Both the position numbers and the translations under genes were made by a program. This document shows positions 38,180 through 54,316 of a DNA stretch of 64,000 bases, piece after piece (position 1 is the stretch's first letter; each line of letters opens with the position of its first letter). Under the pieces are notes generated by a model. That model searched no databases and was not told where the DNA came from. It saw nothing but the letters and a program-made list of their open reading frames with translations. The stretch is taken from the IMG/VR virus record IMGVR_UViG_3300026289_000086; one strand, written 5' to 3'. The stretch is from a virus (lineage: Duplodnaviria; Heunggongvirae; Uroviricota; Caudoviricetes).

Positions 38180-38686
38180 TCCTCCGACCACCAGAGGCGC
38201 GCGCAAGGTGAGCGCAGCAATCGCGCCCAGTCACCAAAATCGGTGGAGTAAGTATCAGCAGTAACCTCTCGTGCTGAATCGTGCCGGCCCCCGGCCAGGA
38301 AGAGACGTAGCGGCGGCGAAAAATCGCCCGGCGCGAACGTCGGCTAACTGATCCGGAACCCGCCGCCCGGCTCTGTTCGCTGTCGGTCCAGTTCTCGGCC
38401 TGAGCTGACCTTGGGCCTGTGGTCAGACTAGAGCAGCAATGCGCTGGTTACCTGCCGCTCAGCCACAAGCAGCACCGATCGGCAGCATCTCTATCCGGCG
38501 AATACCTACTCCAGCCCCAAGCGGACGTATTCGCAGCTTTGATGGGCGTACGGCGCCTTCCGACGCGTCATCATCTTTCGGTACGGGGTCAAGATCTCCC
38601 AGTGCCAACCTCATGGCTACCTAGTATGATCGCGCAGATGGCATACTGCCTGAAAATCATAGGTCGTTACATGGGAGGGGCAGCCT

Positions 38687-39688
38687 TTGCGCATCAACCA
38701 CGCCGCGCAAATCTGCGCGCTTTCGTCGTCAGAACTTGAAGACTTCGTCAACGACTGGCTCGCCCAGCGTTGCAAGGACTACTACGGCCACGAGCTATGG
38801 CGTGGCACGGGTGACATGGGCCGCGATGTGACAGGGTACGTCACCGACCGCAGTATGGAAGGTCCATGGGACAACTTCCAGTGCAAGCAGCTCAGCTCTA
38901 AGCTCTCCGAGGCGTCAGCCTTCATCGAGCTAGGCAAGATATTCAAGCATTCGGCCGACGGCGCGTTCTCACTTCCACGCGCCTACACCTATGTCGCGCC
39001 GCTCGGCGTTGTTCGGAATGTGCGGCACTTCGTCGCACATCCCGAGCAGTTTAGGCAGGCCTTCCTGGACCGATGGGACAGTGTCATCGCTGGGGATCTC
39101 GTAGAGAATCAGGTCGTGAAGTTGACCTCCGAGATCGAGGCCAAAATTCGAGCGTTTGAATTCACGCGGGTGAACTGGCTAGACGCCAATCGCCTCGTCA
39201 ACGATCCCGCATGCAAAGCGGCTCTGGTGGCATGGTTTGGCGCCGACCCGGGACTCTGGCCTAGGGGCGTCGTGCCAGACGAAATTCAGGCCAGCGAGTC
39301 CTCCTACATCGGCCAGCTCCTCAAGATCTACGGGGAAAAGGGGCCGGGGACCTATCCGGACGCGGCTGCGGCGCTCGCATCTCCAGAGTTCGGCCCTCAC
39401 CTGCGTGCCCAGCGCACCCGTTTCTTCGATTCAGTGGCCTTTGATCGCTATTACCGCGATTCAACGCCCAAAGAGTACCTAAATTATTTCAAGGATGAGA
39501 TCTACCATGGTGTTCTCGACGTACACAATGGGGAGTACGCGGGCCGCTTCACACGGCTCAGTCAGGTAATGCAACACGCGGCTATCCTTCAGGCGTCCGG
39601 AGTACTAGGCAAACACGCAGGCCCACAGGTCAAGCAAGGCACCTGCCACCAGTTTGCAAACGAAGGGCTGCTGCCGTGGGATCGCTAG
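38687..39688 (+). CDS. Mrr-like restriction-endonuclease-fold protein (candidate effector), gene 1 of a 4-gene operon
   Basis: TTG start with a GGGAGGGG ribosome-binding site. The N-terminal block 'GDMGRDVTGYV...WDNFQCKQL' matches the PD-QxK (Mrr_cat-like) pattern also seen in ZorD ('IQCKSS'). Confidence 0.5.
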   Translation: MRINHAAQICALSSSELEDFVNDWLAQRCKDYYGHELWRGTGDMGRDVTGYVTDRSMEGPWDNFQCKQLSSKLSEASAFIELGKIFKHSADGAFSLPRAYTYVAPLGVVRNVRHFVAHPEQFRQAFLDRWDSVIAGDLVENQVVKLTSEIEAKIRAFEFTRVNWLDANRLVNDPACKAALVAWFGADPGLWPRGVVPDEIQASESSYIGQLLKIYGEKGPGTYPDAAAALASPEFGPHLRAQRTRFFDSVAFDRYYRDSTPKEYLNYFKDEIYHGVLDVHNGEYAGRFTRLSQVMQHAAILQASGVLGKHAGPQVKQGTCHQFANEGLLPWDR

Positions 39689-40191
39689 AGCGCAATGCAT
39701 GGGGCTCGCACCCGTTCAACAGCACACTAGAGACCGGAATCCGTGCGCTGGTGCTGCTGGAGGCCTTCTATCCGCGGCGCTGTGATCTGCTGGAGATGAC
39801 TTGGCTCGACCATCTAATCGTCCACACCGGCGACCTCGACGGCCAAGATGTGCCGGAAAGCTTGCATCCGGATTTACCCAACCGCGCCGGGGAGTTGCTC
39901 GTGCGCCGCCAACTGGTCGAGAAAAGCTTGCGCCTGATGCAGCAAGTGCATCTCGTCGACGTGTTCGAAACTGAGGAGGGTATTACGTTCGGTGCCAGCG
40001 AAGACGCGCCGAGCTACCTGGATCTCCTGCAGGCGCCGTATTCCCTTGCCCTCAAGGAACGCGCCAAGTGGATGGCCAACCGCTTCGCGGGCATGCAAAC
40101 CGCCGAGATGCGAGCGCTGATCGAGAGCCGCATCGGACGCTGGACCGCTGACTTCCGGGTAGAAGAGCTGCCAACGGGGCTTCAAAAATGA
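39676..40191 (+). CDS. Helical hypothetical protein (candidate 'middle component'), gene 2
   Basis: 171 aa, overlaps gene 1 by 13 nt and gene 3 by 4 nt. No catalytic motifs. Confidence 0.45.
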   Translation: MGSLERNAWGSHPFNSTLETGIRALVLLEAFYPRRCDLLEMTWLDHLIVHTGDLDGQDVPESLHPDLPNRAGELLVRRQLVEKSLRLMQQVHLVDVFETEEGITFGASEDAPSYLDLLQAPYSLALKERAKWMANRFAGMQTAEMRALIESRIGRWTADFRVEELPTGLQK

Positions 40192-42053
40192 ACGGCATCC
40201 GTCTGCGTCATCTGGTCTTCACCGGCCCGAACGTCGAGCTCGCCGAGCTTGAGTTCGGCGATGGCTTGAACATTGTTTTCGGTGCCTCCAACACCGGGAA
40301 GTCATTTGCGTCGAAGGCCATTCTCTTCGCGCTGGGCGCTTCCGGGAAGCTGCCGGAGACTCAGGAGATCAAGGCTTACGACGGTATCTGGCTCGGCATC
40401 ACGTTGGCCGACCAGGGCGAGTTTACGCTTTATCGGGCGACGCGCGGCGGCCACCTCAAGCTCTTCCCAGGCCTGATCAAGGGCGCGCAAAATTCCAAAG
40501 GGGAAGTACTACGCCAAGCGCACACCTACAAGCGCACCGACACCGTCTCGCATCGACTGCTTGAGGCTATTGGCCTGGCCAACAAGTGGGTGGTGCGCGA
40601 CGGCAACGGCAAGAAAGACTCGCTGTCCATCCGTCTGCTGTCGAAGTACTTTGTGGTGGGGGAAACGGACATCATGTCCGAGACCAGTCCGGTCTATCTA
40701 TCGGGCAGTCCGACAGAGCGCACGTTCGAGCAGAACCTCTTCAAGCTCCTCCTCACAGGCAGCGACGATTCGGCAGCCGTGACAGTCCCGAACGAGACGG
40801 AGCGCAAGGCCGCCAAGGCGGCGAAAATCGAGCTGGTCGACGAGTTGCTGGCGCAACTCGACGCTGAACTCGGCGGGGAGCCAACGGATAAGAAGGAAAC
40901 TGACGAGCAGCTTGAGCGACTCGATCAGAGTGCCGACGGCTTGCACGCTCGGTTGCAGAACACGCAAAACGAGCTGGATGGCCTCGTGGTCGCGCGACGT
41001 GCAAACCTTGATCGTAGCCGCGAACTGCAAGAGCGCGCCGGTGAGCTAGAGCTAACGCTGCAGCGCTTTGCCAAGCTGAAGGCGGTCTACAGCTCCGACC
41101 TGGATCGTCTACACTCCATTGAGGAAGGCGGCTACGTGCTGGTGGCCATGGTCGGACGTGACTGCCCGGTCTGTGGCGCTCCGCCCGACGCCCAGAAACA
41201 CAATCACGCCGCGGATGAGATTTCTATGGCGCACACGGCCGCTACCGCCGAGGCCTCCAAGATTGAGCGCGAGCAACGAGAACTCGCGCCCGTGATCGCC
41301 TCGCTTGAGGCCGAGGCCGTCGGTCTGAGTAAGACCATCGACAAGCTAATGACCGATACCGAGAGGCTAGACGGCGCTATTCAGGGCCTCCGCCCCCAGG
41401 AAGCATCTCTACGGGAGAGCTACGAGACCTACAACTCGAAGCGCGCCGAGATCCTCAAGGTGCTCGACCTCCATCACCGGCGCGCGAAGCTGGCATCGCG
41501 GCGCGCCGAGATCGGCGCCGTTCCGACGAAGCGCGAGGGTGAGCCGGCACGGGTAGGCCTGGACTCAACGACTGCATTTGACTTCGGCGAGACGGTGAAG
41601 GCAGTGTTGAAAGCCTGGAAATTCCCCGACGCTGACAAGGTCCAGTTCGATGGGAAGGCCAACGACATTACTGTCGGAGGCAAATCCCGTGCTGCCAATG
41701 GCAAGGGGGTCCGGGCAGTGCTCCACGCGGCTTTCAACGTCGCGGTGATTGTCCACTGCATCGACAACAACCGGCCGCATGCTGGCTTTCTAGTGCTCGA
41801 CACCCCGCTGCTCACCTACCGCGAGCCGCTGAAGTCGAAGTACGGTGAGTTGTCGCAGGACGAGGCCGAGCTCAAAGCTACCTCGCTCGCGGAACACTTC
41901 TACAAGTACCTCTCGAGCCTCGCGGAGCGCGTGCAAGTCATCGTCATCGAGAACTCGGATCCGCCCTCAGCCATTGACGGGTTGGCCCGCATCGAGACCT
42001 TCACTGGTGAGCAGGGCAATGGGCGGGCTGGGTTGCTCGCCAGGCTCGCATGA
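40188..42053 (+). CDS. Rad50/SMC-like ABC ATPase with coiled-coil insert and CPVC zinc-hook, gene 3
   Basis: Walker A 'FGASNTGKSFASKAILFALG' at the N-terminus. A long coiled coil contains a central 'RDCPVCGAPPD'. C-terminal Walker B/D-loop 'GFLVLDTPLLTYREP'. Confidence 0.7.
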   Translation: MNGIRLRHLVFTGPNVELAELEFGDGLNIVFGASNTGKSFASKAILFALGASGKLPETQEIKAYDGIWLGITLADQGEFTLYRATRGGHLKLFPGLIKGAQNSKGEVLRQAHTYKRTDTVSHRLLEAIGLANKWVVRDGNGKKDSLSIRLLSKYFVVGETDIMSETSPVYLSGSPTERTFEQNLFKLLLTGSDDSAAVTVPNETERKAAKAAKIELVDELLAQLDAELGGEPTDKKETDEQLERLDQSADGLHARLQNTQNELDGLVVARRANLDRSRELQERAGELELTLQRFAKLKAVYSSDLDRLHSIEEGGYVLVAMVGRDCPVCGAPPDAQKHNHAADEISMAHTAATAEASKIEREQRELAPVIASLEAEAVGLSKTIDKLMTDTERLDGAIQGLRPQEASLRESYETYNSKRAEILKVLDLHHRRAKLASRRAEIGAVPTKREGEPARVGLDSTTAFDFGETVKAVLKAWKFPDADKVQFDGKANDITVGGKSRAANGKGVRAVLHAAFNVAVIVHCIDNNRPHAGFLVLDTPLLTYREPLKSKYGELSQDEAELKATSLAEHFYKYLSSLAERVQVIVIENSDPPSAIDGLARIETFTGEQGNGRAGLLARLA

Positions 42054-42985
42054 GCGAGCACGCGCACTCGGTCCAGGTCACCGCTGGGAATTCGCAGCTT
42101 GCCGACCTGAAGAGGTCCTGGGTCACCGCAGTGTTCAGTGTCGAGGATGGCATTGGCCCCATGGAATCGCTGCATCAGGCCGGAGACTCGATCATTGCCG
42201 TAGCGACAATGACGGATCAAGGGATCAAAGTCATCGGCAGTGGCGTGATGATCGGCCCCGGACTGATGCTGACAGCAAGCCATGTCCTCGATGAGTTTCC
42301 GCAGGAGGGCACGGGCCCCGTCTGCTTGACATTCCTTCCGGGGGCAACTCGCGCGTGGCTGCCATGCGGAAGGACGACGTTGACTGGTGCCAGCTCATTT
42401 GCTCCCAACCGTCGCAAAGTGTCCGACCTGACATTGATGAGCTGCAGTCTTAACTCCGAGGCCCACGAAGAATTTCCTATTGTTCTGGCGCCAATTCAAC
42501 TGGCACTGCCATTGATCGGCGAACGGCTGTGGGCCTTCGGGTACCGCCATGGCGACATTCTGGACGGCGCAGCCTTGCTTACGCCACTGGTCACCTCCGG
42601 CGTCGTGACCGGCTGCTATCCGCAGGGCCGTGGTGAGCGCATGCCATCCACCTGCATCGAAGTTGAAATGGATACCATGGGCGGCATGAGCGGCGGACCC
42701 GTCGTTAACGATGATGGCTGGCTTGTGGGCATCGTTTCGTCGTCGTTCGAAGGCGGACCAACCTACGTCACGCTCGTCTGGGATGCAATTCGCATCTCGG
42801 TCGGAGAGGCTCCGAAGAACCTATGGCCAGGCGGCGCGGCGGATCTCATGATCGGACGAGACTTGGGCCTTGTAAAGCTCAAGGGCGCCGTAACGCGGGA
42901 CGCAGAAGGCAACGTGACGCTCACCATGTCGGATCCGGAGATGGAGCAACTGGCGACGTTCAGTGATCCGATACACATTACCTGA
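42050..42985 (+). CDS. Trypsin-like serine protease (chymotrypsin fold), gene 4
   Basis: Candidate catalytic His 'LMLTASHVL' and the Ser motif 'MGGMSGGPVVND' (GDSGGP-like). ATGA overlap with gene 3. Confidence 0.7.
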   Translation: MSEHAHSVQVTAGNSQLADLKRSWVTAVFSVEDGIGPMESLHQAGDSIIAVATMTDQGIKVIGSGVMIGPGLMLTASHVLDEFPQEGTGPVCLTFLPGATRAWLPCGRTTLTGASSFAPNRRKVSDLTLMSCSLNSEAHEEFPIVLAPIQLALPLIGERLWAFGYRHGDILDGAALLTPLVTSGVVTGCYPQGRGERMPSTCIEVEMDTMGGMSGGPVVNDDGWLVGIVSSSFEGGPTYVTLVWDAIRISVGEAPKNLWPGGAADLMIGRDLGLVKLKGAVTRDAEGNVTLTMSDPEMEQLATFSDPIHIT

Positions 42986-43203
42986 CGCAACTAGCGCAGA
43001 GGTGAATCATCTACGGCGCCCCTACTTCGAGTTGTACCCCGTACTTCGAGCCGAAAGTGTAAGTGTGAGTTCGCCGACTACGTAAGCTGACGTATCGCTT
43101 GCAAACGTCATTAGGCAGCACTGGGTCGGAACCGGGAATTGACCTCCCCGATATCGAGATGGCAATGAAAGGCAAAGCAAACTACCGAAGGTAGAATACT
43201 GCC

Positions 43204-43345
43204 ATGACCCGCGCTGATTTGATCGCCGCCATCGCCTCCCGCTTCCCAACGCTGACGGCGAAAGACGCCGACGTCGCAGTCAAGGAAATCCTTGATGCCA
43301 TCGGACGCTCCCTGGCGCAAGGTGATCGTGTCGAAATCCGTGGGC
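43204..43345 (+). pseudogene. Truncated IHF-beta/HU-family DNA-binding protein gene (N-terminal ~47 codons only)
   Basis: 'MTRADLIAAIASRFPTLTAKDADVAVKEILDAIGRSLAQGDRVEIRG' aligns with the IhfB/HU N-terminus up to 'IEIRG' and then loses similarity. zorD ends 113 bp downstream on the other strand. Confidence 0.55.
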
Positions 43346-43457
43346 AACAAACGCTTCCGGATCACCTGGCCTGCGTCGCCATTCAGCGCGTGCGCGCAAT
43401 GGCGATGACGATGTCTTGCGATGATCCGCCCAATCGTGCGCGACGCGACCTGATTGC

Positions 43458-46400
43458 TCATCCGCCATCCCACCCTGAAAACAGGAATGAGGCAAGTTCG
43501 CCACGGCGAATCGGTTGTTCGTTGAGGCGTTCTGCTAAGTCTTCTGAATCGAGTAATTCGACATGGTTGATTCGCCCCTGCTCACGCGCAGTGCGGTTGA
43601 ACCGACAATTGGTCACTGCGACAAGGGAAAAGCGAACCTCTGGATGGCGCGCTGCATATGCGGCCGATCCCGCGACCACATCTTTTACCGCCTCCCATCC
43701 TAGTTCCCGGCCGTCGATCGACGAACTCTTGCACTGGATAAGAACTCCGGCCTTTCCGTTGATCGCCACCACATCGACCCCGCCGTCCCCAACGCGAGGG
43801 GTGCGCCTAGTGTTCCGGTATCCCAGCTTGCTCCAAAGGATTGCGCAGAAGGCCTCGAATGCATCTGGGTCGAGTTCGCCGAGTTCGTCGGCCCTGATGA
43901 GATCCGGGCCGAACGCGTTACCGCCGCCAGGGGCCTCCAAGTCGCCGAAGTCTGACGGACGCAGGTCCCCGGTCCCGTTGAGCATATCCGTGGAGAGGCC
44001 GCGCTTCCATTCGAGCAGGGCGTCCAGTTTCTGGTCAAATGTAGTGAAATCCTCGGCCAACACGACAGGGTAATAGACGAACACGTCCTTCGTCTGGCCG
44101 ATTCGGTAAGCGCGGTCGGTGGCCTGGTCTTCCTTGGCCGGATTCCATGTCCGCGTGAAGTGGACGACATGGTTCGCCGCTTGGATGTTAACCCCGAAGC
44201 CGACAGCCAGCGGGGAAAGGATGATCGTTCCAAACCCCGGGGCCTCTTGGAACTTCGTGATGCGTTTCTGGCGGTTGTTCGAGTTACCTGCGGCCGCAGA
44301 GGTGTCCCCGTTTATCACATCGGGAAGAAAGCCCAGGCGTTCGTGGATGACTCGTTGCAGCGTTCGCTGCAAATCGCGGAACTCGCAGAAGATGATGGCT
44401 TTTTCTCCAGCAGCCCGGATGTGCCCGAGCTTGTTGAGCAGCCATGCCATTTTCGGAGAGTGCCGAATGATTTCCGTTACGGGCTCGGAGCCACCGGAGA
44501 CGCTGCCCGGCGGGCGGGGGTCCGAGCAGAGGCGACGCAGGTATTGAAGCAGCCCGAGATGGCTCTGGAGGCCAGAAGGTGCCCCTCCATCGGATCCCTT
44601 GCGAAACAACCCAACGGCTTCAGCGTAGTGCGCCCGCTGCCGATCCGACAGTGGCAGACTTCGGCATTCGAGAACCTCGATCTTCTTCGGCAGGTCCTTG
44701 GCCACATCCGCCTTGACCCTACGCAGTTTTTGCGGCTCGATGAGTTCGCGCAGTTCTGCGACCCTGTCCTTTTCCTCTTCACTCTCCGCCTCGATCGGCT
44801 TGCGATAGCGTTCCCCAAAGTCCTTTAGGGCGCCGAGCAGTCCCGGCTGAACGAAGTCGAACAAACACCAGATGTCGGTGAGCGTGTTCTCAACCGGTGT
44901 TCCCGTGCAGGCGATCTTGAACCGGGCATTTTGCTTTTTCGCCGCACGCGTCACCAGCGCATTCGGGTTCTTGATCTTCTGCGCCTCGTCGCAAACCATC
45001 ATTGACCAGCGTTGCCAAGCCAGCGAAAACTCTAGGTCGCGCAGCGTTTCGTACGTCGTCAGAACGATCTTCGCGTCGCCGAGCCAGTCGCGCCGGAGCA
45101 GCCTCGTCACGCCGGCCCCAGCGAGTTCCTCGTTGAGCGAACTTCTTGGCAGGCGTTTTTGCGCAAGGTCGGAACCGTAGAGCGTCAGGATCGGTAACGC
45201 TTTGGGCTCGAAGAACTTTCCGATTTCCTCTTTCCAGTTCTCCAGCAGGGAGACCGGGGCCACGACGAGAAACGGGTCGATTTTCTCATTCGCCTCAATG
45301 GCTGCGGCCATGAACGCGAGCAGTTGAATAGTCTTGCCAAGCCCCATGTCGTCGGCGAGCAGAGCGCCCCTACAGTCGCCAGGGGATTTTCCCCACAGGT
45401 GTTGGAGCCACGCCACACCGGTTTTTTGATGTTCCTTGAGCTCGATCTCGCGTTTGAGGCTCGACGGTAGGACGGGGGCCAGCCCCTCCGGCATGGCCAG
45501 CCAGCCCCGGCACTCCTCGTAATCGAGCGTGTCGACATTCGGCTTGACCACCAAACCTTTGCGTTCGATCGGAACGCGTCCACCGACTCCAGGCTTGCTT
45601 GGCTCGAATGTACCCGATGACACAGCGGCGCTGGCCGATCCGAGTGCTTCAAGAGCCTCCTGCGCCCACGCAACATTTAGTGGTTTTGGGCAACCTGGGA
45701 ACTGAAACGACTTGAGGTTTTCCTCCTTAGCCTTAGCCAACGCCTCGCGGAACGCTCCGAGCGTCTCCTCAGACAGCGCGACGGCAACCGTGCCCCCGCC
45801 GCCCTCGGGCGTGTAGCACAGACCAACGTCGACGTTGTCCGGGAACCAGCCGGACTCCTCGCTTTTTCTGGCGATGAACGGAGAGTAGTAGGGTTTCTCG
45901 ACCCCAAAACCCTCAACCCGTTCCGAGTATCGAGTGATGTCGAATATCTCGGACGCCTTGAAACCCGTCGCCCCCCCCAGTTCGTCGTGGGCAGCCCACA
46001 GCAGGGCCGCTTGGTCTGGGGTGTCCCCGAGTATTTCCAAATCGGCGCCTTCCCAGTGGCAGCACTGGGAGCCCCTTGCGATCCTCTCGTCGAGCTTGGT
46101 GAGGAACTTCTCCAATGCGTCGGCGCCTTCGAACACCACTTCCTCGGCGGTAACGTGGCCGGCGCTGGTTTCTTCGACCAAAATTCCCGTCTCGAATGGC
46201 CGTCCGGAGTCGTCGCGCCTCACGATTGCCGTGAAACGGGCGAAGGAGATGCCGGCCTCTTCCCTGGCGTCCTCGAATTGCTGCGGATCGATGACCTTGG
46301 CGGCATCGGGGCCCAGCGCGGCGAACGGATTGCGCGCGAAGGCTTCGGCGCGCTCACCACAGACCCTTCGACCCGGCATTCTCTTGATTTCCCGCAGGAC

Positions 46401-47189
46401 AGTTCGGGCCTCTGGAGAGATGACGATGTGAGCAAGCCCCTCGCCGTCGGGAATCTCATAGCGTTCCCCGACCGATCCTAGCCGGTCGAAAATTTCCAGC
46501 CAGCGCGGCGGTTCCCCATCAAATCCCGGAATGACCTCGATGGTTCCGCTTGCGCCTTTGCGCATCCGGATGTGGATTTTCTCCGGTGTCAGGACGACGG
46601 TCTTTTTGAGGAAATCCGAAAGGTCGGAGCCAGCCGAAACCGCCCGCGTCCTTATTGCGGCCCAAGCCCTGCGGTTGGAGTCTGCGTTCCTCCCTTCTTT
46701 GGGCCGCGCATGAAATTTAGCGACGGCCTGCAAGGTCTCCCACGTCTCAGGCGGCAGCAGAGCCTCTGAGGATCCCGTTCGAAGCAATGCGTCCTCTATG
46801 GCGGGATCCGAGCGCAGCGGAAGATCGTCGGGACCGACCCATCCAGCAATCGCCACCGAGAATTCCTCGTCTGTCAGCGAACCCCTGCTGGACAACGCTG
46901 GGCGCCAGCGTTGGACCGGGGGCAGCCCAAGAATCGGCATGCCTTCGGCATGGGCCGGCGACGACATGAGGCGATAAAGGCTATCCCACTCGATCCGTGC
47001 GCTGTCTCCGTCTCGCTCGACGTACCCCTCGTCCTCAAGTTGGGCGACCAGTGCCGCGAACTCAGTCAGAGGGCCAGCCAATGCTCCGGGAAACAGAACT
47101 CCCTCGGACGTGAATTCGGTGGTCGGGCGCTTGGACGCGACGGCATCGTCCACCTTCTTCTTGCCCGAGCCAAACACAGACCATCCCAT
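43458..47189 (-). CDS. zorD: ZorD: SNF2-family helicase with C-terminal Mrr-like nuclease domain (Zorya type I)
   Basis: Motif I 'LLADDMGLGKTIQ', motif II 'MMVCDEAQKIKN', 'TGTPVEN' and a helicase-C region. The C-terminus 'VDVVAINGKAGVLIQCKSS' gives D...QxK. Its position as the 4th gene after zorABC fits. Confidence 0.8.
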   Translation of the reverse strand: MGWSVFGSGKKKVDDAVASKRPTTEFTSEGVLFPGALAGPLTEFAALVAQLEDEGYVERDGDSARIEWDSLYRLMSSPAHAEGMPILGLPPVQRWRPALSSRGSLTDEEFSVAIAGWVGPDDLPLRSDPAIEDALLRTGSSEALLPPETWETLQAVAKFHARPKEGRNADSNRRAWAAIRTRAVSAGSDLSDFLKKTVVLTPEKIHIRMRKGASGTIEVIPGFDGEPPRWLEIFDRLGSVGERYEIPDGEGLAHIVISPEARTVLREIKRMPGRRVCGERAEAFARNPFAALGPDAAKVIDPQQFEDAREEAGISFARFTAIVRRDDSGRPFETGILVEETSAGHVTAEEVVFEGADALEKFLTKLDERIARGSQCCHWEGADLEILGDTPDQAALLWAAHDELGGATGFKASEIFDITRYSERVEGFGVEKPYYSPFIARKSEESGWFPDNVDVGLCYTPEGGGGTVAVALSEETLGAFREALAKAKEENLKSFQFPGCPKPLNVAWAQEALEALGSASAAVSSGTFEPSKPGVGGRVPIERKGLVVKPNVDTLDYEECRGWLAMPEGLAPVLPSSLKREIELKEHQKTGVAWLQHLWGKSPGDCRGALLADDMGLGKTIQLLAFMAAAIEANEKIDPFLVVAPVSLLENWKEEIGKFFEPKALPILTLYGSDLAQKRLPRSSLNEELAGAGVTRLLRRDWLGDAKIVLTTYETLRDLEFSLAWQRWSMMVCDEAQKIKNPNALVTRAAKKQNARFKIACTGTPVENTLTDIWCLFDFVQPGLLGALKDFGERYRKPIEAESEEEKDRVAELRELIEPQKLRRVKADVAKDLPKKIEVLECRSLPLSDRQRAHYAEAVGLFRKGSDGGAPSGLQSHLGLLQYLRRLCSDPRPPGSVSGGSEPVTEIIRHSPKMAWLLNKLGHIRAAGEKAIIFCEFRDLQRTLQRVIHERLGFLPDVINGDTSAAAGNSNNRQKRITKFQEAPGFGTIILSPLAVGFGVNIQAANHVVHFTRTWNPAKEDQATDRAYRIGQTKDVFVYYPVVLAEDFTTFDQKLDALLEWKRGLSTDMLNGTGDLRPSDFGDLEAPGGGNAFGPDLIRADELGELDPDAFEAFCAILWSKLGYRNTRRTPRVGDGGVDVVAINGKAGVLIQCKSSSIDGRELGWEAVKDVVAGSAAYAARHPEVRFSLVAVTNCRFNRTAREQGRINHVELLDSEDLAERLNEQPIRRGELASFLFSGWDGG

Positions 47190-47192
47190 TGC

Positions 47193-48926
47193 TCATTCCC
47201 TCCACCAGCCTTTGCCGGCTTTGTAGTTGAATCCCCACCGGCGTAGTGCGTATGCGACCGCTCCGATGCTTTCGTCAGTCCGGACCCACAGCGCCCCGCC
47301 CTTCGGGCGCAAGTCCTCGATAGAAACTCTCCAACTAGCGGCAAATTTCGCAAGGCCTGCCATGCTTACTGAGGCGGACAAGTCGTCCGCGCCGGTCTGC
47401 TCGGCGACGACGCGCTTGGCCGCAGGCTTCGTCCTAGGCTTGAATGATTGGCCGAGTCTGCGGGCGGACTCCTCGGGGCGATGACCGATAAGCGGGCAGA
47501 TGACGTAGTCAAACTTCTGTTCCCAGGTCAGCCCAGCGCTCTCGCTGTCCCTGTGAATCAGTCGGTCGATGTGGTTCCGGTTTTTCAGTCCGTGGATCGA
47601 AATGCTCGAGCGTTCTTTGCTGGAGCGGAGCTTCTGTGACAGGGTTGAGGGGATCGACTCCCATCGGAACAGGTAGAACGCGTTGCCCTTGGCCCCGAAC
47701 TCGACGGCCAGATACTCGCCGACTCTCATGATGAACGCGTTGTTATCCGCTGTAGTCTGGTCTAGGTCGAGCAGCAGGCCTTGCGCCCTTTGGCGGAAGT
47801 CATCGAACTCCTCGCCGCGGCGGGACTGGGTGTCGGCCCCAAGAGCGAACCACATGTCGCCGACGAAGGGCTCGAAGCGCAGCCAGTAATCGAGCCTGCG
47901 TGTATCGCCGATCCCATCCGCGCTCAGCAGTTCGAAGAAGTCGCGGATCAGGCGACGCTTGAGCCATCCGTTGATCATTTCCCGCGCCCCGTCGTCGGGG
48001 CGGCCCCTAGAGTCAACGACTGCAGAGTCCCATGCCGCTCGGCGCAGCCACGGATTCCCAATGATCGAGACTGCTGCGTCGCGTAACGCCATTTGTTCAG
48101 TTGTCGCCAAACAACGCGAATAGCGCGACGTCAGGAGGGCCACGCACTTAATCCGCAAGGCCTTCGGGATGAATACGTCGCCCTTACCTGTGGCAATCGG
48201 CAAAAGCTTGTCGAGCACCGACTTGAAATCCTCCTCGCCTAGTTTCGAGGCAGACCTCATACGCGAATAAACCGCTTCTTGCCTGACCCACGAGTCGGTT
48301 GGAATAGCCAGCGATTCGACGGCGGAGTTCAGAGACGAGGTATCGCCTTGCAGCAGGGCTGGGCCGTATTTTTCGCACGGATCCGAGCCAAGCAGGTTCG
48401 AGTGTTCGGCAAGCGGCGTCATCCATCCTGGCTTGCGACCTGCCGCTTTCTCCAGCGAGTGGCGCTTCCGTTCGAGCCACGCGCCCACGGCTCTGAAGCC
48501 CTCGACGGCAACCACGTCGGTCGATTCGGCGTGCAGGGGGAATGTCCAGTAGCCCCGTAGCAACGCCTGGAGGCATTTGGTCTGCCGTCGAGTGTCCCCC
48601 GCAGCATCGGCGGCAGCGAGTAGTTTTCCCCGAAGCCTGTCGTCCGAAATCAGGATACGTCCGCGGTCGTCCAGACTGCCAGCCCCGAGGCAAACATACT
48701 TGAGCTCACGAAAGCTAGCGGCTATTCCCGTACGGCGGAATGCGGCAACGGCGGCGGACATCGCTCTCGGGTCGGACGGCGGGGCCGGTGCGTCGAACAC
48801 GGCCCGCACTTGGCTGATCATGCGCTTGGTAGCAGCGTCATCGGTCCATGCATCATGATGCGCCGCCGGGATCGGGATGAAAGTCGCCCGCAGCCGCGAG
48901 CGCAGGACTGCGATCGATTCGATCAT
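47193..48926 (-). CDS. zorC: ZorC (Zorya type I)
   Basis: A ~577-aa protein between zorB and zorD. The likely start is the ATGA overlap with the zorB stop (48926) rather than track start 48989. Size and context are as in E. coli type I Zorya. Confidence 0.65.
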   Translation of the reverse strand: MIESIAVLRSRLRATFIPIPAAHHDAWTDDAATKRMISQVRAVFDAPAPPSDPRAMSAAVAAFRRTGIAASFRELKYVCLGAGSLDDRGRILISDDRLRGKLLAAADAAGDTRRQTKCLQALLRGYWTFPLHAESTDVVAVEGFRAVGAWLERKRHSLEKAAGRKPGWMTPLAEHSNLLGSDPCEKYGPALLQGDTSSLNSAVESLAIPTDSWVRQEAVYSRMRSASKLGEEDFKSVLDKLLPIATGKGDVFIPKALRIKCVALLTSRYSRCLATTEQMALRDAAVSIIGNPWLRRAAWDSAVVDSRGRPDDGAREMINGWLKRRLIRDFFELLSADGIGDTRRLDYWLRFEPFVGDMWFALGADTQSRRGEEFDDFRQRAQGLLLDLDQTTADNNAFIMRVGEYLAVEFGAKGNAFYLFRWESIPSTLSQKLRSSKERSSISIHGLKNRNHIDRLIHRDSESAGLTWEQKFDYVICPLIGHRPEESARRLGQSFKPRTKPAAKRVVAEQTGADDLSASVSMAGLAKFAASWRVSIEDLRPKGGALWVRTDESIGAVAYALRRWGFNYKAGKGWWRE

Positions 48927-49657
48927 CTGCTGGGGACCGGGCATTTGGAGTCCTCGTCCCAAGGAATGTCGGGTGGTGGCGTGTCGCATTTGCTTTGGCC
49001 GGCGGGGCAGAGTTCCTTGAACTCGAGCCGGAGCTCGACTCGGCGGCTTTCCTCAGGGATTTTCTTGATCGAGTTGAAGGACGACCCGCCGACGAGGAAC
49101 AGCGTGCGGATCATCTTCCGGTCGTCGACGCTGGGGGCATCGGCGGCGCTCGCATCCAGAAGCACGCAAAGCATTCGTTGAGACCGCTCCAAACTAAGGT
49201 TCAGGTTGTAGAGGTAGGAGCCCTCTTGGCTCGCGAAGCCCTCGACGACAACTCGCTTGAGCCACTTCTGGCAGCTTTCGTGGCGGGCGACTTCGAGAAC
49301 CTTCGGAACGAACCTGCGCAGGAACACCCTGCGTTCGGATGTGAGGTCATTGCCGTCTTTTTTGAACTCGGCAAGGGAGCCGAACTCGATCGCGTGTCCG
49401 CGCACCATCACTCCCTTGAACTCGGGCCTCTGGGTAATTCTCTCGATGTCGGTGATGCACGCCCGGATCGTTTCGTCTCGATCCTTCTTCTCCTGCTCGA
49501 TTTCACGAAGCCCTTGTGTGACAGCCATCAGAGCGACGGCCATGGCAACGAGGAAAAGCACCATAAGCGCCGTCATCAGGTCGGAGAACGATATCCAGAA
49601 CGGCTTCTCGGCCTCGTCCTTGGAGGAGGTGCGCCGCGGTGTCTTGATGCCGAGCAT
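48923..49657 (-). CDS. zorB: ZorB: MotB/TolR-like protein with OmpA-like peptidoglycan-binding domain
   Basis: N-terminal TM with a conserved Asp ('ISFSDLMTALMVLFLVAM') and a C-terminal OmpA-like region. Overlaps the zorA stop. Confidence 0.75.
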   Translation of the reverse strand: MLGIKTPRRTSSKDEAEKPFWISFSDLMTALMVLFLVAMAVALMAVTQGLREIEQEKKDRDETIRACITDIERITQRPEFKGVMVRGHAIEFGSLAEFKKDGNDLTSERRVFLRRFVPKVLEVARHESCQKWLKRVVVEGFASQEGSYLYNLNLSLERSQRMLCVLLDASAADAPSVDDRKMIRTLFLVGGSSFNSIKKIPEESRRVELRLEFKELCPAGQSKCDTPPPDIPWDEDSKCPVPSR

Positions 49658-49663
49658 GGGGTC

Positions 49664-51667
49664 TTACCTCTTCGCTGGCAAGTCGTCGAGGGTGTCTCCA
49701 AGGTCCTTAATGGCTCCAGAGAGCAGGCCCACCGCGTCGCCGAGCTCCTTCTGGAATTGGCGGTTGCCCTCGCGCAGGGTGCGCGTGACGTTTTCGGCAA
49801 ACGACTCGTGAGCCTTGCCGAGGACGTCGCTGACGGCTTCGAGGTATTCCCCGGACTGCTTTTCCGCAGCGGCGAGTTGCATGGCTGCCTCTTTAAGGGT
49901 TTTAACAATCTCGGAAGTCATTGAGGCCTCCTTGCGGGCGTTCTCCACGATCGACTTCATTTCCGAGACCATCGTGGCGAACGAGTCGCGCGTTCTCCCG
50001 TAGTCGGCGACGATGTCGCAGGCCGCGTTGGTGGCCGACGCGAGTGTGCCGGAAGACTCGCGGATCAATTCCACGGCGGCCGAGGACGAACGCATCGTCT
50101 CGGAGACACCCGATCCTGCCTTAGCAAAATCGGAGGCCGCGACGTAAAGTGTTTCGGCCCCTTGGTTGAGTCTGTTGATCGCCTCGGTCGTGGCCGATGA
50201 CAGGCGCGCGATCGTGTCCTGCAAGGACTTGGTCGTTTCGACCGACTGGGCGAGAAGGGCCTCGGTTTGTTGGGAAAGTGATCCGATCGCCCTGCCGGTG
50301 CTCTCTTCGAAATTCAGCTGGCGGCGTCCTTGGGAGACGGAAGCCTCCTCGGCTTGCCTGCGTAGTTCGCTGACGGCGGCCGCAACCTGCACGCCCATCG
50401 TTGAGAGGGCCTCCTGCATTTTCTTTCCCGTCTCCGACTGGGACTCTGAGGTCATCGAGCGCAGTTGCTCGACGAATTCACCCATCTGCTTGTTCATGAT
50501 CTGCTGGCGGGCCTCCATCGAGGTGATGGCGTGATTGAGGCGGTCGGTCATCGAGTCGACGGCATTCTTGCCGGCAGAATCCATTCCCTCGGCGAGCCGT
50601 GAGAACTGGGAGGCTGTGTCGCGCATGGCGTCGCTAGTCTGGCGCAGAAGGTCGCTCATTCCCTGCATCTGGCCACCAAACATTTCACGCATTTGCGCCG
50701 AGAAGCTTGATAGCACGTCCGTGAGCATTTTGTTGAGGGCGTCGCCTTGGCTGGCACTGACCCCCTTTACCGCTTCGGCAATCACGGTGATGGGCTCTCC
50801 GAGGTGATCACCGATGGCCTTGCCGACATCGACGGAAATTTGCCTCGTGGCGCGGGCGTTCTCTTCGACCTGTCGAGCAGTTATCTCCGACAGAATTTCG
50901 CGCAGGTCCGCCACGAGGGCATCCTTAATCTGCAAGGCTTGCGTCGCCTGCGTTTCGGAGGCAACCACTAGACGCTCGAGGTATTCCTCACCGGCTCCCC
51001 CATCGAACATGCTGTCGATCAGGTGGCAAAGTTCCTCGACCTGCCGATACCGGGCAGTCACAAGGGACTTCTCAATCCATGTAAAGAGCATCGCCAGGGC
51101 GATTGCGGTAGCAGAGACGAAGAACGCGTGTCCAACAGCTTTGACCAGATTGCTCAACTCCGTTTGTGCCAGTTCTGGGTTAATCGATACGTTAAAGTCG
51201 ATCAGACCAAGGATCAGGCCGGAAAACGTTCCGATAATGCCGAGGCCGGTCAGAATTCCGGGGACGTGCTTGTAGAACTCCGTTTTGAGGGGCGAGTCGA
51301 CCACGGAGTGCTCGGAGAAGAAAATTTCGGACAGCGCGGTCGCCCGCCAGCGTTTGACTCGCATGAGCCCGTTGCCATCGTCGGCGCGTTGTGGGTGCAG
51401 GGTCTCGGTGTATTCGCTCCAAAGATGCGCCAAGCGGGGTTCAATCATTGCCTCTCTTGCGATTTCATCCAAATCGACCGCCATCCCGGCGGCCTTCGTC
51501 TTGGTTTGCGAGATGGCTTTGATGACTTTCGCGAGCGCTCCGCCAAGGCGCAGTGCCGGAAGCATGAAGCGGAACACGAATCCGAATGAGACAATGGCGA
51601 TAATCGCGCCGACGGTCCAAACGTGCCAATTCTGCGAAAAAACGACCAAAATCTCGTTCGTTGCCAT
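49664..51667 (-). CDS. zorA: ZorA: MotA/ExbB-like proton-channel protein with long coiled-coil tail
   Basis: N-terminal TM, then 'GILTGLGIIGTFSGLILGL' and 'FFVSATAIALAMLF' (a MotA/ExbB-type TM core), followed by ~450 aa of coiled coil. Confidence 0.8.
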   Translation of the reverse strand: MATNEILVVFSQNWHVWTVGAIIAIVSFGFVFRFMLPALRLGGALAKVIKAISQTKTKAAGMAVDLDEIAREAMIEPRLAHLWSEYTETLHPQRADDGNGLMRVKRWRATALSEIFFSEHSVVDSPLKTEFYKHVPGILTGLGIIGTFSGLILGLIDFNVSINPELAQTELSNLVKAVGHAFFVSATAIALAMLFTWIEKSLVTARYRQVEELCHLIDSMFDGGAGEEYLERLVVASETQATQALQIKDALVADLREILSEITARQVEENARATRQISVDVGKAIGDHLGEPITVIAEAVKGVSASQGDALNKMLTDVLSSFSAQMREMFGGQMQGMSDLLRQTSDAMRDTASQFSRLAEGMDSAGKNAVDSMTDRLNHAITSMEARQQIMNKQMGEFVEQLRSMTSESQSETGKKMQEALSTMGVQVAAAVSELRRQAEEASVSQGRRQLNFEESTGRAIGSLSQQTEALLAQSVETTKSLQDTIARLSSATTEAINRLNQGAETLYVAASDFAKAGSGVSETMRSSSAAVELIRESSGTLASATNAACDIVADYGRTRDSFATMVSEMKSIVENARKEASMTSEIVKTLKEAAMQLAAAEKQSGEYLEAVSDVLGKAHESFAENVTRTLREGNRQFQKELGDAVGLLSGAIKDLGDTLDDLPAKR

Positions 51668-52004: not shown

Positions 52005-52817
52005 TCAGATTGGGTAGGACCGGAGGCGAGAGACCTCCGGCCATCCGGGACCGCTCGTCCCGAGACGACGCACGACCTTGCCAATAAAAAGTTCCACCTC
52101 GGCAGCACTCGGCACGATGAAAGGGCCAACGAGACGGCCGTCTGTCACCTCCGTCGTCCGTCCTCGCGAAAGCCGATAAACGAACGCCGCCAGGTCGGAG
52201 TTATTGCGCTTGTGGTTGCCAGGCTGTGTCTCACTCGTGACGAATTCATGCACGAGCATGACCGCGCGGGAGTAACCCTTTCGCTTTGCCTCAGACACCG
52301 CCCCAGCGCAGGCGGTAAGTAGTTGGTAGCGCAGTTCGCCTAGCCGTGGCTCGCCTTTGACGCGCGGACCGAACAAGGAAAGAACCAGTTGTTCAACACG
52401 GGCGACCCCGTTCGACCGCGGGTTCCCAAGGCGGCGTTCGAGTGCATCGGCCAGCGTTTTCGAGACCTCGTCTCCGTACGGCTCGTCCGCCTTGGCCTCG
52501 ACAGCAAGCAGATAGGGACCGATTGCGTCGATCACATAGACCACAAGGTCGCTATTCCTCGGCTCACCGGGGAATCTGTCGAAACGTAGCTTGGCTTCTG
52601 GCTCAGCTTCCCAAGATAGAACCGCGCCAAAGCTACTGTGGGCTGCCAAGGAACTCGCGACTTCAGGCGGCAAAGCCGTTCCTCCTCCCTCCAGCCAAGC
52701 GCGGGCGACTTCTTTGGCACTCCTCCCATCGACCCAGTGGTAGTGGGCCTTCGGTGGAGCATACGTCTCCCAATCAGAGAGAGACGCGATGACGTGACCA
52801 GCTTTTGCGATTGGCAT
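52005..52817 (-). CDS. PD-(D/E)xK nuclease-fold hypothetical protein
   Basis: The sequence 'SDLVVYVIDAIGPYLLAVEAKADE' gives a D...E-x-K core on a β-strand pattern. 270-aa stand-alone gene next to Zorya. Confidence 0.45.
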   Translation of the reverse strand: MPIAKAGHVIASLSDWETYAPPKAHYHWVDGRSAKEVARAWLEGGGTALPPEVASSLAAHSSFGAVLSWEAEPEAKLRFDRFPGEPRNSDLVVYVIDAIGPYLLAVEAKADEPYGDEVSKTLADALERRLGNPRSNGVARVEQLVLSLFGPRVKGEPRLGELRYQLLTACAGAVSEAKRKGYSRAVMLVHEFVTSETQPGNHKRNNSDLAAFVYRLSRGRTTEVTDGRLVGPFIVPSAAEVELFIGKVVRRLGTSGPGWPEVSRLRSYPI

Positions 52818-53204: not shown

Positions 53205-54316
53205 CTTGCTTTCATGCCTATCCGGTTGCCACAGGTTTGCGATGATTTGCGGAAACGGGATTCTTGCTCACGCCATCGTATAGATCGCGGTAAGTCGGGG
53301 CTTCAACCCGTGCGGCGATTTCCAGCACGCTATCAAATGCCACCATTGGCCAGAACCGACGGTTGAAGCGAAAAACGAATTCGTTGAGATAGGCCTGCAA
53401 ATGCTTTGGACTGACTCCGTGGTGGCTACCCAACAACCAGGCATCCAGGTTCCCGAACACGATGTGGATTATCGGCAGGTGAGCTTCGGTTTTCGCTTGG
53501 TCGCCTTGTATAGCCAGCGGGTCGTGGCGATATCCCAGTTTGGTAAGGTTGTCGTAGCCGGTCCACCCATCTGTACGGACAGCGGACCCTGGAGATACGG
53601 CCGAGATAACGAAAGACTCCAACTCCTTTCGGCTTCGTCCCGGCGCGACTTCGAGACGAAGGCGGCCAGCAATAAAACCTCGACCGTGCCCACCTTTGTG
53701 TTTGGTCTTCGCTTGCCCGGTAGGCATGTTCGGGTCAGGCCCGGGAGCCTTCGCACGCGGCCGGACCTCGACCGCGCCCACAACCAACGTTTTGTGATGG
53801 CACCCCCGACCTTCGCCTTGCGTGGCGCCACCGACCCACGTCTCGTCCAGTTCGACCGGCCATTCGCCACCGATTCCGTCACGCTCCGGACGAACCATCG
53901 CCGCTCGCAATTTATGCAGCATCTGGAAAGCGGTCTCGTAACGTCCGAGCCCAAGCTGTCGTTGAAATTGCAAAGCGCTCATTCCGGGAGTCTGGGTTGT
54001 CACAAGGTAGGCCGCCCAGAACCAGACGTGAAGAGGCTGTCGCGAGCCCTGCATGACGGTCCCGGCCGTGAGGCTGGTCTGGCGGCCGCAGCGCGAGCAT
54101 TCAAGAACACGAGGACGAGACAGAAGCCGCCACGGTTCTCCGCAATGACTACAGGCCGGGCATTTGAAGCCTTCAGGCCAGCGGATACGTTCCATGTGGC
54201 GGGCACAGGCCACCTCATCGGGAAAATACTTCTGGAATTCCAGAAGAGTCTTCGGATAGTCGGACATGCGTCAGATTGTGTCACCGGGCTCAACCTGTGG
54301 CAACCGGATAGGCATG
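53205..54316 (-). mobile_element. IS1595-family (ISXO2-like) insertion sequence with target-site duplication
   Basis: Terminal inverted repeats 'catgcctatccggttgccacaggtt' (53213-53237) and 'aacctgtggcaaccggataggcatg' (54292-54316). Flanking direct repeat 'cttgctttca' at 53205-53214 and 54317-54326 (exact IS/TSD boundary ±2). Confidence 0.75.
53218..54267 (-). CDS. IS1595-family transposase (ISXO2-like)
   Basis: N-terminal zinc ribbon 'CPACSHCGEPWRL...CSRCGRQ' and conserved 'LHVWFWAAYLVT', with a DDE core. 349 aa. Confidence 0.8.
   Translation of the reverse strand: MSDYPKTLLEFQKYFPDEVACARHMERIRWPEGFKCPACSHCGEPWRLLSRPRVLECSRCGRQTSLTAGTVMQGSRQPLHVWFWAAYLVTTQTPGMSALQFQRQLGLGRYETAFQMLHKLRAAMVRPERDGIGGEWPVELDETWVGGATQGEGRGCHHKTLVVGAVEVRPRAKAPGPDPNMPTGQAKTKHKGGHGRGFIAGRLRLEVAPGRSRKELESFVISAVSPGSAVRTDGWTGYDNLTKLGYRHDPLAIQGDQAKTEAHLPIIHIVFGNLDAWLLGSHHGVSPKHLQAYLNEFVFRFNRRFWPMVAFDSVLEIAARVEAPTYRDLYDGVSKNPVSANHRKPVATG

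Follow-up and report, generated by a model that had tools for sequence, protein, structure and literature searches.

Lamassu systems are understood mechanistically from their Salmonella and V. cholerae representatives, which have been studied by cryo-electron microscopy and biochemistry (10.1101/2025.03.14.643221, 10.1101/2025.06.23.660979, 10.1101/2025.04.02.646746). In these solved systems, a folded LmuB dimer and LmuC together sequester a single LmuA via its C-terminal domain (CTD); DNA-end sensing and ATP free the LmuA, which then tetramerizes via this domain and cleaves DNA without specificity, thereby aborting the infection. The V. cholerae DdmABC and Salmonella enterica LmuACB systems both belong to the subfamily that combines a Cap4 N-terminal domain (NTD) and CTD7 with the middle component MC3. 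Further described forms include Lamassu-Mrr/Lamassu-PDDEXK, of which the E. coli SE15 system defends by abortive infection (Millman et al., 2022), and the Lamassu 'Hydrolase-Protease', in which LmuA has an N-terminally fused protease that always occurs with an upstream pro-nuclease of the metallo-beta-lactamase (MBL) fold (Tuck et al., 2025; PMC12799240). Here we analyze a four-gene operon at positions 38687-42985 of a 64,000-nucleotide stretch of DNA from a tailed-virus record (IMG/VR IMGVR_UViG_3300026289_000086; the whole stretch is hereafter called the window). A first-pass annotation, made from the letters alone, had put the operon forward as a candidate uncharacterized defence system comprising a nuclease, a helical protein, an ABC ATPase and a trypsin-like protease. 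The reading that we favor, and regard as rather likely, is that genes 1-3 are a Lamassu system and that gene 4 is a separately mobile late arrival, which is either a co-resident passenger or functions independently.

The four open reading frames (ORFs) are all encoded on the + strand, with overlaps of 13, 4 and 4 nt, exactly as the first-pass annotation had described them. The first of these, lmuA (gene 1; 38687-39688, +; 333 residues), begins with a TTG codon, and the Shine-Dalgarno-like GGGAGGGG, read from the sequence at 38674-38681 (+), is situated 6 nt 5' of this start. Its product shows a full-length match to the PADLOC LmuA model PDLC03852 (E = 3.8e-79) and couples an N-terminal PD-(D/E)xK nuclease domain of the Mrr/Cap4-like type to the ABC-three-component (ABC-3C) C-terminal domain CTD6 (Pfam, residues 204-331, 5.6e-26). 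The signature residues of the nuclease, D43, D47 and Q65-x-K67, which are contained in the motif GDMGRDV...NFQCKQ, are unchanged in 30 and in 38 homologs, bearing out the earlier description of an Mrr-like nuclease. The second gene, lmuC (gene 2; 39676-40191, +; 171 residues), encodes the ABC-3C middle component 2 (MC2; Pfam PF20288, 1.3e-41) and matches the PADLOC LmuC model PDLC03871 over its full length (3.9e-54); this is the small helical 'middle component' suspected at the outset. The third, lmuB (gene 3; 40188-42053, +; 621 residues), encodes a short SMC/Rad50-like ABC ATPase, with a match to the PADLOC LmuB model PDLC03863 across residues 2-617 (3.4e-168). Its Walker A motif (GASNTGKS, 32-39), the central CPVC (326-329) and the C-terminal FLVLDTP (534-540) are unchanged in 31 homologs, and the coiled coil spanning approximately residues 200-450 matches those of Rad50/SMC proteins, in line with the Rad50-like ATPase originally described. 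Gene 3 has a single CxxC zinc hook (C326, C329), together with a deviant Walker B motif, FLVLD-T, at 534-539, in which D538 is invariant. Short Lamassu systems are characterized by a Walker B pattern of the form hhhhD[Q/S/T/E] and an optional CxxC zinc hook (Haudiquet et al., 10.1101/2025.04.02.646746), and the FLVLD-T of the window agrees with this pattern. All the motifs quoted by the first-pass annotation are found in the translations, at invariant alignment positions.

To place these genes among their relatives, we used an LmuB alignment to search one genome per species and thereby obtained 80 loci, in which LmuB is 34-82% identical to that of the window. The gene order lmuA-lmuC-lmuB is retained in 78 of the 78 loci with upstream contig sequence, and the 13-nt overlap between genes 1 and 2 is ancestral, being found again in many of the homologous loci. 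The CTD6/MC2 subfamily is widespread in Proteobacteria. Given the PADLOC and Pfam matches, gene order, zinc hook and deviant Walker B motif, genes 1-3 (38687-42053) are, as judged from their sequences, a canonical short type II Lamassu or ABC-3C system with a nuclease-CTD6 LmuA and an MC2 LmuC. The same gene arrangement, 13-nt lmuA/lmuC overlap, zinc hook and Walker B occur in the short type II Lamassu of PADLOC, from which the window copy differs only in its extra downstream protease. The suggestion of an ABC-3C or Lamassu relationship proved correct: PADLOC and Pfam return Lamassu components for the first three genes and Trypsin_2 for the fourth. In contrast, the statement that no named system fits does not stand: the three products match LmuA, LmuC and LmuB full length, and their homologs are already named 'ABC-three component system protein' and 'ABC-three component system middle component 2' at NCBI. 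What had looked like an unnamed four-gene system is hence built around a routine CTD6/MC2 Lamassu, and a false lead is removed.

In contrast to DdmABC and LmuACB, the window system has CTD6 and MC2, and sequence similarity to them is barely detectable; moreover, DdmC is without a zinc hook whereas the LmuB of the window possesses one. The restriction-endonuclease-type LmuA effector, used in place of Cap4, is a feature that the window has in common with Lamassu-Mrr/Lamassu-PDDEXK, as far as these can be likened by description. The ABC heads, coiled coil and CxxC zinc hook of LmuB are also common to the Rad50/SbcC ATPases; however, the matches to the latter fall far under the NCBIfam cut-offs, there is no Mre11/SbcD partner and LmuB is much shorter. 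Sequence searches of the PDB recovered no structure match for LmuA or LmuC, and LmuB weakly matches 9hqu_A (E = 6e-4, or 1.6e-5 with a profile), which was deposited as a 'DUF3732 domain-containing protein' and is shared with 9hqx, the Salmonella Lamassu LmuACB complex. Mechanistic work has so far been entirely on the Cap4-CTD7/MC3 form, and the CTD6/MC2 versions of LmuA and LmuC are, by these searches, without a solved structure; this and the recurrent adjacency of protease and Lamassu described below are the most useful points left over from the analysis.

By analogy with the solved systems, genes 1-3 would constitute an anti-phage and anti-plasmid system that operates through an LmuA1B2C1 complex and abortive infection. 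The zinc-hook LmuB dimer and LmuC would keep one LmuA monomer inactive via its CTD. Detection of invader DNA ends or replication intermediates by LmuB/LmuC, with binding and hydrolysis of ATP, would then free LmuA, which might oligomerize by means of the CTD such that the PD-(D/E)xK domains cleave DNA indiscriminately and the infection is aborted. The active-site lysine of LmuA would here be K67, the likely counterpart of SalEnt K68.

Gene 4 (42050-42985, +; 311 residues) encodes a stand-alone serine protease with the trypsin/chymotrypsin fold, as indicated by Pfam, AlphaFold2 and Foldseek. It matches the Pfam Trypsin_2 family (2e-15) and displays the motif GGMSGGPVV at residues 211-219; the triad His78, Asp126 and Ser214 is invariant in 41 family members, and the trypsin-fold protease described at the outset is thereby borne out. 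The AlphaFold2 model (pLDDT 90) retrieves the V8 protease, DegS and Esp in Foldseek at 12-21% identity, and the protease domain is flanked by family-specific N-terminal (1-47) and C-terminal (245-311) extensions. A Pfam scan found neither a PDZ domain nor an ABC-3C CTD in gene 4, and the latter is likewise missing from the scanned long-form relatives considered below. Inspection of the translation by eye revealed no hydrophobic stretch in the first 40 residues, and hence no signal peptide is apparent. Together, the lack of a PDZ domain, of an ABC-3C CTD and of such a stretch indicates that the protein is probably cytoplasmic. The weak, sub-threshold NCBIfam matches to DegP, HtrA and DegS around the catalytic serine, along with the presence of DegS and DegP among the Foldseek matches, might be taken to mean that gene 4 is an unrelated housekeeping protease of the periplasmic HtrA/DegP quality-control type and a mere neighbor of the Lamassu. 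However, the scores of these matches are only 12-19 bits against cut-offs of 350-470, and identity to HtrA-type structures is just 17-21%. While the fold and the catalytic triad are common to HtrA-, DegS- and V8-type proteases, gene 4 departs from them in its own terminal extensions and in lacking the PDZ domain and the hydrophobic N-terminal stretch, and its family is patchily distributed, bound to mobile elements and defence islands, and not syntenic. We find the housekeeping explanation scarcely credible, and the combination of SbcC with a periplasmic HtrA-type protease, which the first-pass annotation had itself put forward as the alternative to a defence system, is not what these genes turn out to be.

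In PADLOC, the closest likeness of the gene 4 protease domain, though a weak one, is to defence-associated protease domains, those of the RT-protease and of the LmuA protease (PDLC03855). The Lamassu 'Hydrolase-Protease' resembles the window in having a trypsin-like protease in a Lamassu locus; however, the protease of the window is a free protein encoded 3' of lmuB, and its LmuA has a PD-(D/E)xK effector of its own. A pairing of MBL pro-nuclease and protease was considered and rejected, as Pfam detects no Lactamase_B/MBL domain in genes 1-4 and there is no protease-LmuA fusion. A role for gene 4 as a trypsin-type ABC-3C effector was similarly rejected, in view of the absence of an ABC-3C CTD by Pfam.

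We then asked how firmly gene 4 is linked to the Lamassu genes. A homolog of gene 4 within 8 kb was found in none of the 80 species-level Lamassu loci, and no recurring fourth gene occupies the slot 3' of lmuB in the 73 loci with downstream sequence. Two further relatives, from B. multivorans (LmuA 87% identical) and from the C. necator plasmid pBB2 (LmuB 83% identical), have only the three-gene Lamassu, and in both the nucleotide homology to the window ends precisely at the lmuB stop codon. In C. necator N-1, pBB2 carries this three-gene MC2 Lamassu at 332-335 kb and also a protease homolog 157 kb away, unlinked to it; the latter copy (L157, 175360-176604) has an IS21-like transposase pair and an N6-methylase as neighbors. 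Only in the window and in two wastewater-metagenome contigs, L089 and L102, does the protease come after this Lamassu; the three form a shallow clade with at least 88% identity. A 4.7-kb block comprising the Lamassu and the protease (38393-43095, +; delineated by blastn and alignments) is approximately 92-95% identical at the nucleotide level to these contigs. Gene 4 is its own mobile unit: in a solo copy of the protease with 79% identity, the homology extends from exactly the ATG to about 12 nt past the stop codon.

The alignment of the window with L089 and L102 further clarifies the origin of the overlap between genes 3 and 4. In both contigs, lmuB and the protease are set apart by a homologous spacer of about 88 nt, which is gone from the window, where it was lost between the near-identical 9-mers CCCGCCTGA and CCCGCATGA; the junction, identified from the alignment and the spacer sequences of the two contigs, maps to 42047-42053 (+). 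This loss created the ATGA overlap of the lmuB stop and protease start codons and altered only the penultimate residue of LmuB. As the spacer is present in both sister lineages, the ATGA overlap in the window is the product of a recent deletion, and as this 88-bp deletion is specific to the lineage of the window, the coupling of genes 3 and 4 is recent and secondary. What the first-pass annotation took as translational coupling of gene 4 to lmuB stems from this deletion.

The selective regimes of the four genes also differ. Between the window and L089, the ratios of non-synonymous to synonymous substitution rates (dN/dS) are 0.19, 0.18 and 0.17 for genes 1-3 and 1.12 for gene 4 (30 non-synonymous and 9 synonymous changes; gene 4 versus genes 1-3, Fisher p = 1e-5). 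Relative to L102, the corresponding values are 0.20-0.30 for genes 1-3 and 0.50 for gene 4, as against 0.07-0.12 across the protease family. The substitutions in gene 4 are dispersed, with a few falling at positions that are otherwise invariant.

These observations bear directly on the idea that the four genes form a distinct, unnamed four-component defence system of nuclease, helical protein, ABC ATPase and protease. It draws on the co-directional and overlapping arrangement of the genes, on their location in a defence island beside Zorya and on the block common to L089 and L102. Yet genes 1-3 fit the existing Lamassu/ABC-3C models full length and gene 4 is not co-conserved with them, its coupling being secondary; we consider such a system very improbable. 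Because genes 1-3 are an ordinary Lamassu and gene 4 is a separately mobile newcomer, the operon is not a new four-part immune system, and the earlier claim of a single system fails on the very lack of co-conservation, with the protease missing from all the surveyed Lamassu loci. Gene 4 is neither an ancestral nor an obligatory component of Lamassu. In our favored reading of a late arrival, gene 4 would have been caught 3' of lmuB in a recent ancestor of this lineage, and the lineage-specific deletion would then have put it into the start/stop overlap. It is probably co-transcribed with the Lamassu genes, and most likely acts apart from Lamassu or is dispensable to it. A scan of the locus for promoters and terminators gave no signal beyond the shuffled expectation.

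To understand the protease outside of this locus, we examined its family more widely. It occurs in a short form of about 310 residues, to which gene 4 belongs, and a long form of about 480 residues. When 1.8 billion representative proteins were searched with a profile, 59 clusters were recovered at E-values up to 1e-30, nearly all of them stand-alone proteins. The 217 neighbors of approximately 40 non-redundant protease loci fall into 204 clusters, which implies that the protease has no fixed partner. Both defence and mobile-element genes are represented among these neighbors, including Gabija, AriA/OLD-like ATPases, RES, AbiLi, type I restriction-modification, McrBC, integrases, resolvases and TraG/TrwB; scanned in batch with PADLOC and Pfam, they give scattered hits to GajA, AriA, LmuB, RES, AbiLi, TraG, resolvase and HTH. 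That the protease might derive from phages or counteract defence was also considered and rejected, as 50,697 phage genomes contain no match. Among IMG/VR contigs there are only two close matches.

Certain side observations concern the architecture of the family. The C-terminal domain of the long form, of about 170 residues (P0036, P0069 and others), has no Pfam match, and gene 4 is a version without it. The same domain is also joined to N-terminal PIN_12 domains (PF16289) in proteins of about 370 residues (P0432, P0451, P0468, P0506). Its occurrence with both proteases and PIN_12 points to a shared uncharacterized domain with swappable effectors, either protease or PIN, as is typical of the architectures of conflict systems. 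Further, a DUF5677 protein is encoded directly 5' of the long-form protease in X. arboricola (L159, 6072-6782) and Luteimonas kalidii (L162, 6056-6994), with a gap of 7 nt in the Luteimonas locus; DUF5677 may be a lineage-specific partner of the protease in Xanthomonadales.

Several findings weigh against a mere passenger. The ORF and catalytic triad of gene 4 are intact in the window, L089 and L102. The four-gene block travels as a unit, with L089 differing from the window in its flanks on both sides of the block and L102 sharing a similar span. The dN/dS near 1 could equally mean diversifying selection. Above all, there are at least three more independent instances in which the protease lies 3' of a Lamassu-type module in the same orientation. 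In the first, represented by one cassette with about 90% identity in L115 (510-5107) and L160 (Azoarcus sp. DD4, CP022958; 3861-8446), a type I Lamassu with a Cap4 LmuA of 400 residues and an LmuB of 574 residues is followed by the long-form protease; all three genes of this cassette are under purifying selection (dN/dS 0.17-0.33), and the value for the protease, 0.22, is like those of its neighbors. In the second, on plasmid 2 of N. hamburgensis X14 (L156; NC_007960, 101024-106866), an MC2-type Lamassu, AbiH and a long-form protease follow one another co-directionally, with AbiH in the middle. The third, on an A. deltaense plasmid (L158, pEL101-243), has, in this order, an N6-methylase, an LmuB-like 'SMC', an HNH protein, a long-form protease and a RES-domain protein. 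Additionally, a Sir2-type Lamassu lies near the protease in Paralcaligenes, on the opposite strand. Overall, the protease is downstream of Lamassu in roughly 4 of about 32 independent loci with a usable upstream flank, a proportion that may exceed pure defence-island clustering.

On account of the further cases downstream of Lamassu, gene 4 might, with lower probability, have an optional accessory role. In such a role, the family would have been recruited repeatedly behind lmuB, with the protease either joining in as a second effector once the system is activated or regulating it by cleavage of LmuA, LmuC or an inhibitor encoded by the phage. The at least four independent co-directional placements 3' of differing Lamassu subfamilies (the clade of the window, L115/L160, L156 and L158) speak for it, and Gabija behaves otherwise: in the loci where it is near the protease (L093, L095, L159), it always has the other orientation, convergent or divergent, and in none of them does it precede the protease co-directionally. 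The conservation of the four-gene block as a unit, the match of the protease of the type I cassette to lmuA and lmuB in both dS and dN/dS, and the weak affinity of the gene 4 domain to the RT-protease and LmuA-protease domains point in the same direction, and there is a precedent in Lamassu, Hachiman and Avs systems, where nucleases are activated by proteases (PMC12799240). Nevertheless, the protease is missing from the surveyed Lamassu loci, most protease loci are without Lamassu and every linkage is limited to a shallow clade. Gene 4 also lacks the ABC-3C CTD with which it might dock on LmuB/LmuC, its dN/dS is about 1 in the clade of the window, and its overlap with lmuB stems from the recent deletion. 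Island clustering could produce this number of coincidences; taking Lamassu as approximately 3% of defence systems, a rough rather than computed binomial estimate for the adjacency gives p of about 0.02. On balance, we judge an accessory role to be unlikely, though it retains appreciable weight next to the favored reading of gene 4 as a late arrival.

In a more general form, the protease family might tentatively be seen as an uncharacterized conflict module that has been repeatedly captured, as an optional add-on, 3' of unrelated Lamassu subtypes. These subtypes would then, with the same reservation, be the MC2 type II, the Cap4 type I and the LmuB-like SMC with HNH. The family would work together with them, and in the window it would have been drawn into translational coupling with lmuB. 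If this somewhat doubtful proposal is true, the protease would represent either a novel type of Lamassu accessory or a novel defence protease acting as a single gene. A family with no conserved partner that is nonetheless found more than once 3' of Lamassu-type modules is, in any case, a candidate for a systematic association test.

The operon lies in an insertion sequence (IS)-rich defence island of an activated-sludge bacterium, next to Zorya: the window is 100% identical to metagenome contigs from phosphorus-removal (EBPR) sludge and to one metagenome-assembled genome, and the locus is ringed by IS110, IS21 and IS1595 elements. The Zorya next door, already noted in the first-pass annotation, is a complete type I system on the minus strand (43458-51667), with PADLOC matches in one operon to ZorA (1.7e-241), ZorB (6.7e-88), ZorC (2.8e-180) and ZorD (E = 0). 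Between the two systems, an ORF fragment at 43205-43345 (+) with an HU/IHF-like N-terminus (MTRADLIAAIASRFPTLTAKDADVAVKEILDAIGRSLAQGDRVEIRG) ends just before the 3' end of zorD, and is probably the leftover of a gene broken during assembly of the island. Public gene calls also place an ORF of 116 residues at 43111-43461 (-), with a 4-nt overlap with the zorD stop codon; its Arg/Gly-rich translation has a non-coding look and it overlaps the HU/IHF fragment on the opposite strand, and we consider it probably a spurious call. On the far side of Zorya, a DUF6946 protein is encoded directly 5' of zorA (52005-52817, -), followed by an IS1595-family transposase (53218-54267, -); some strain variants (L003, L005) have a truncated DUF6946 gene.

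Upstream of lmuA, a segment of about 2.1 kb is present in two inverted copies (30081-32198 and 35267-37385) that are 93-97% identical. Each copy holds an IS110-family transposase, and the pair flanks an IS21 element (istA/istB, 32340-34625). In the otherwise identical sludge contigs L001 and L002, the IS110 and IS21 genes are not seen in the covered sequence 5' of lmuA, while the sludge contig L003 has both; the region 5' of lmuA therefore differs between strains. Still further upstream (24848-27836, +), a subtilase-like (Peptidase_S8) gene is followed by a radical-SAM/SPASM gene with weak PADLOC likeness to prokaryotic viperins (4.5e-15), and L001 and L002 have a small DUF1843-like gene between or beside these two. 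This group may be a peptide-modification or defence cluster.

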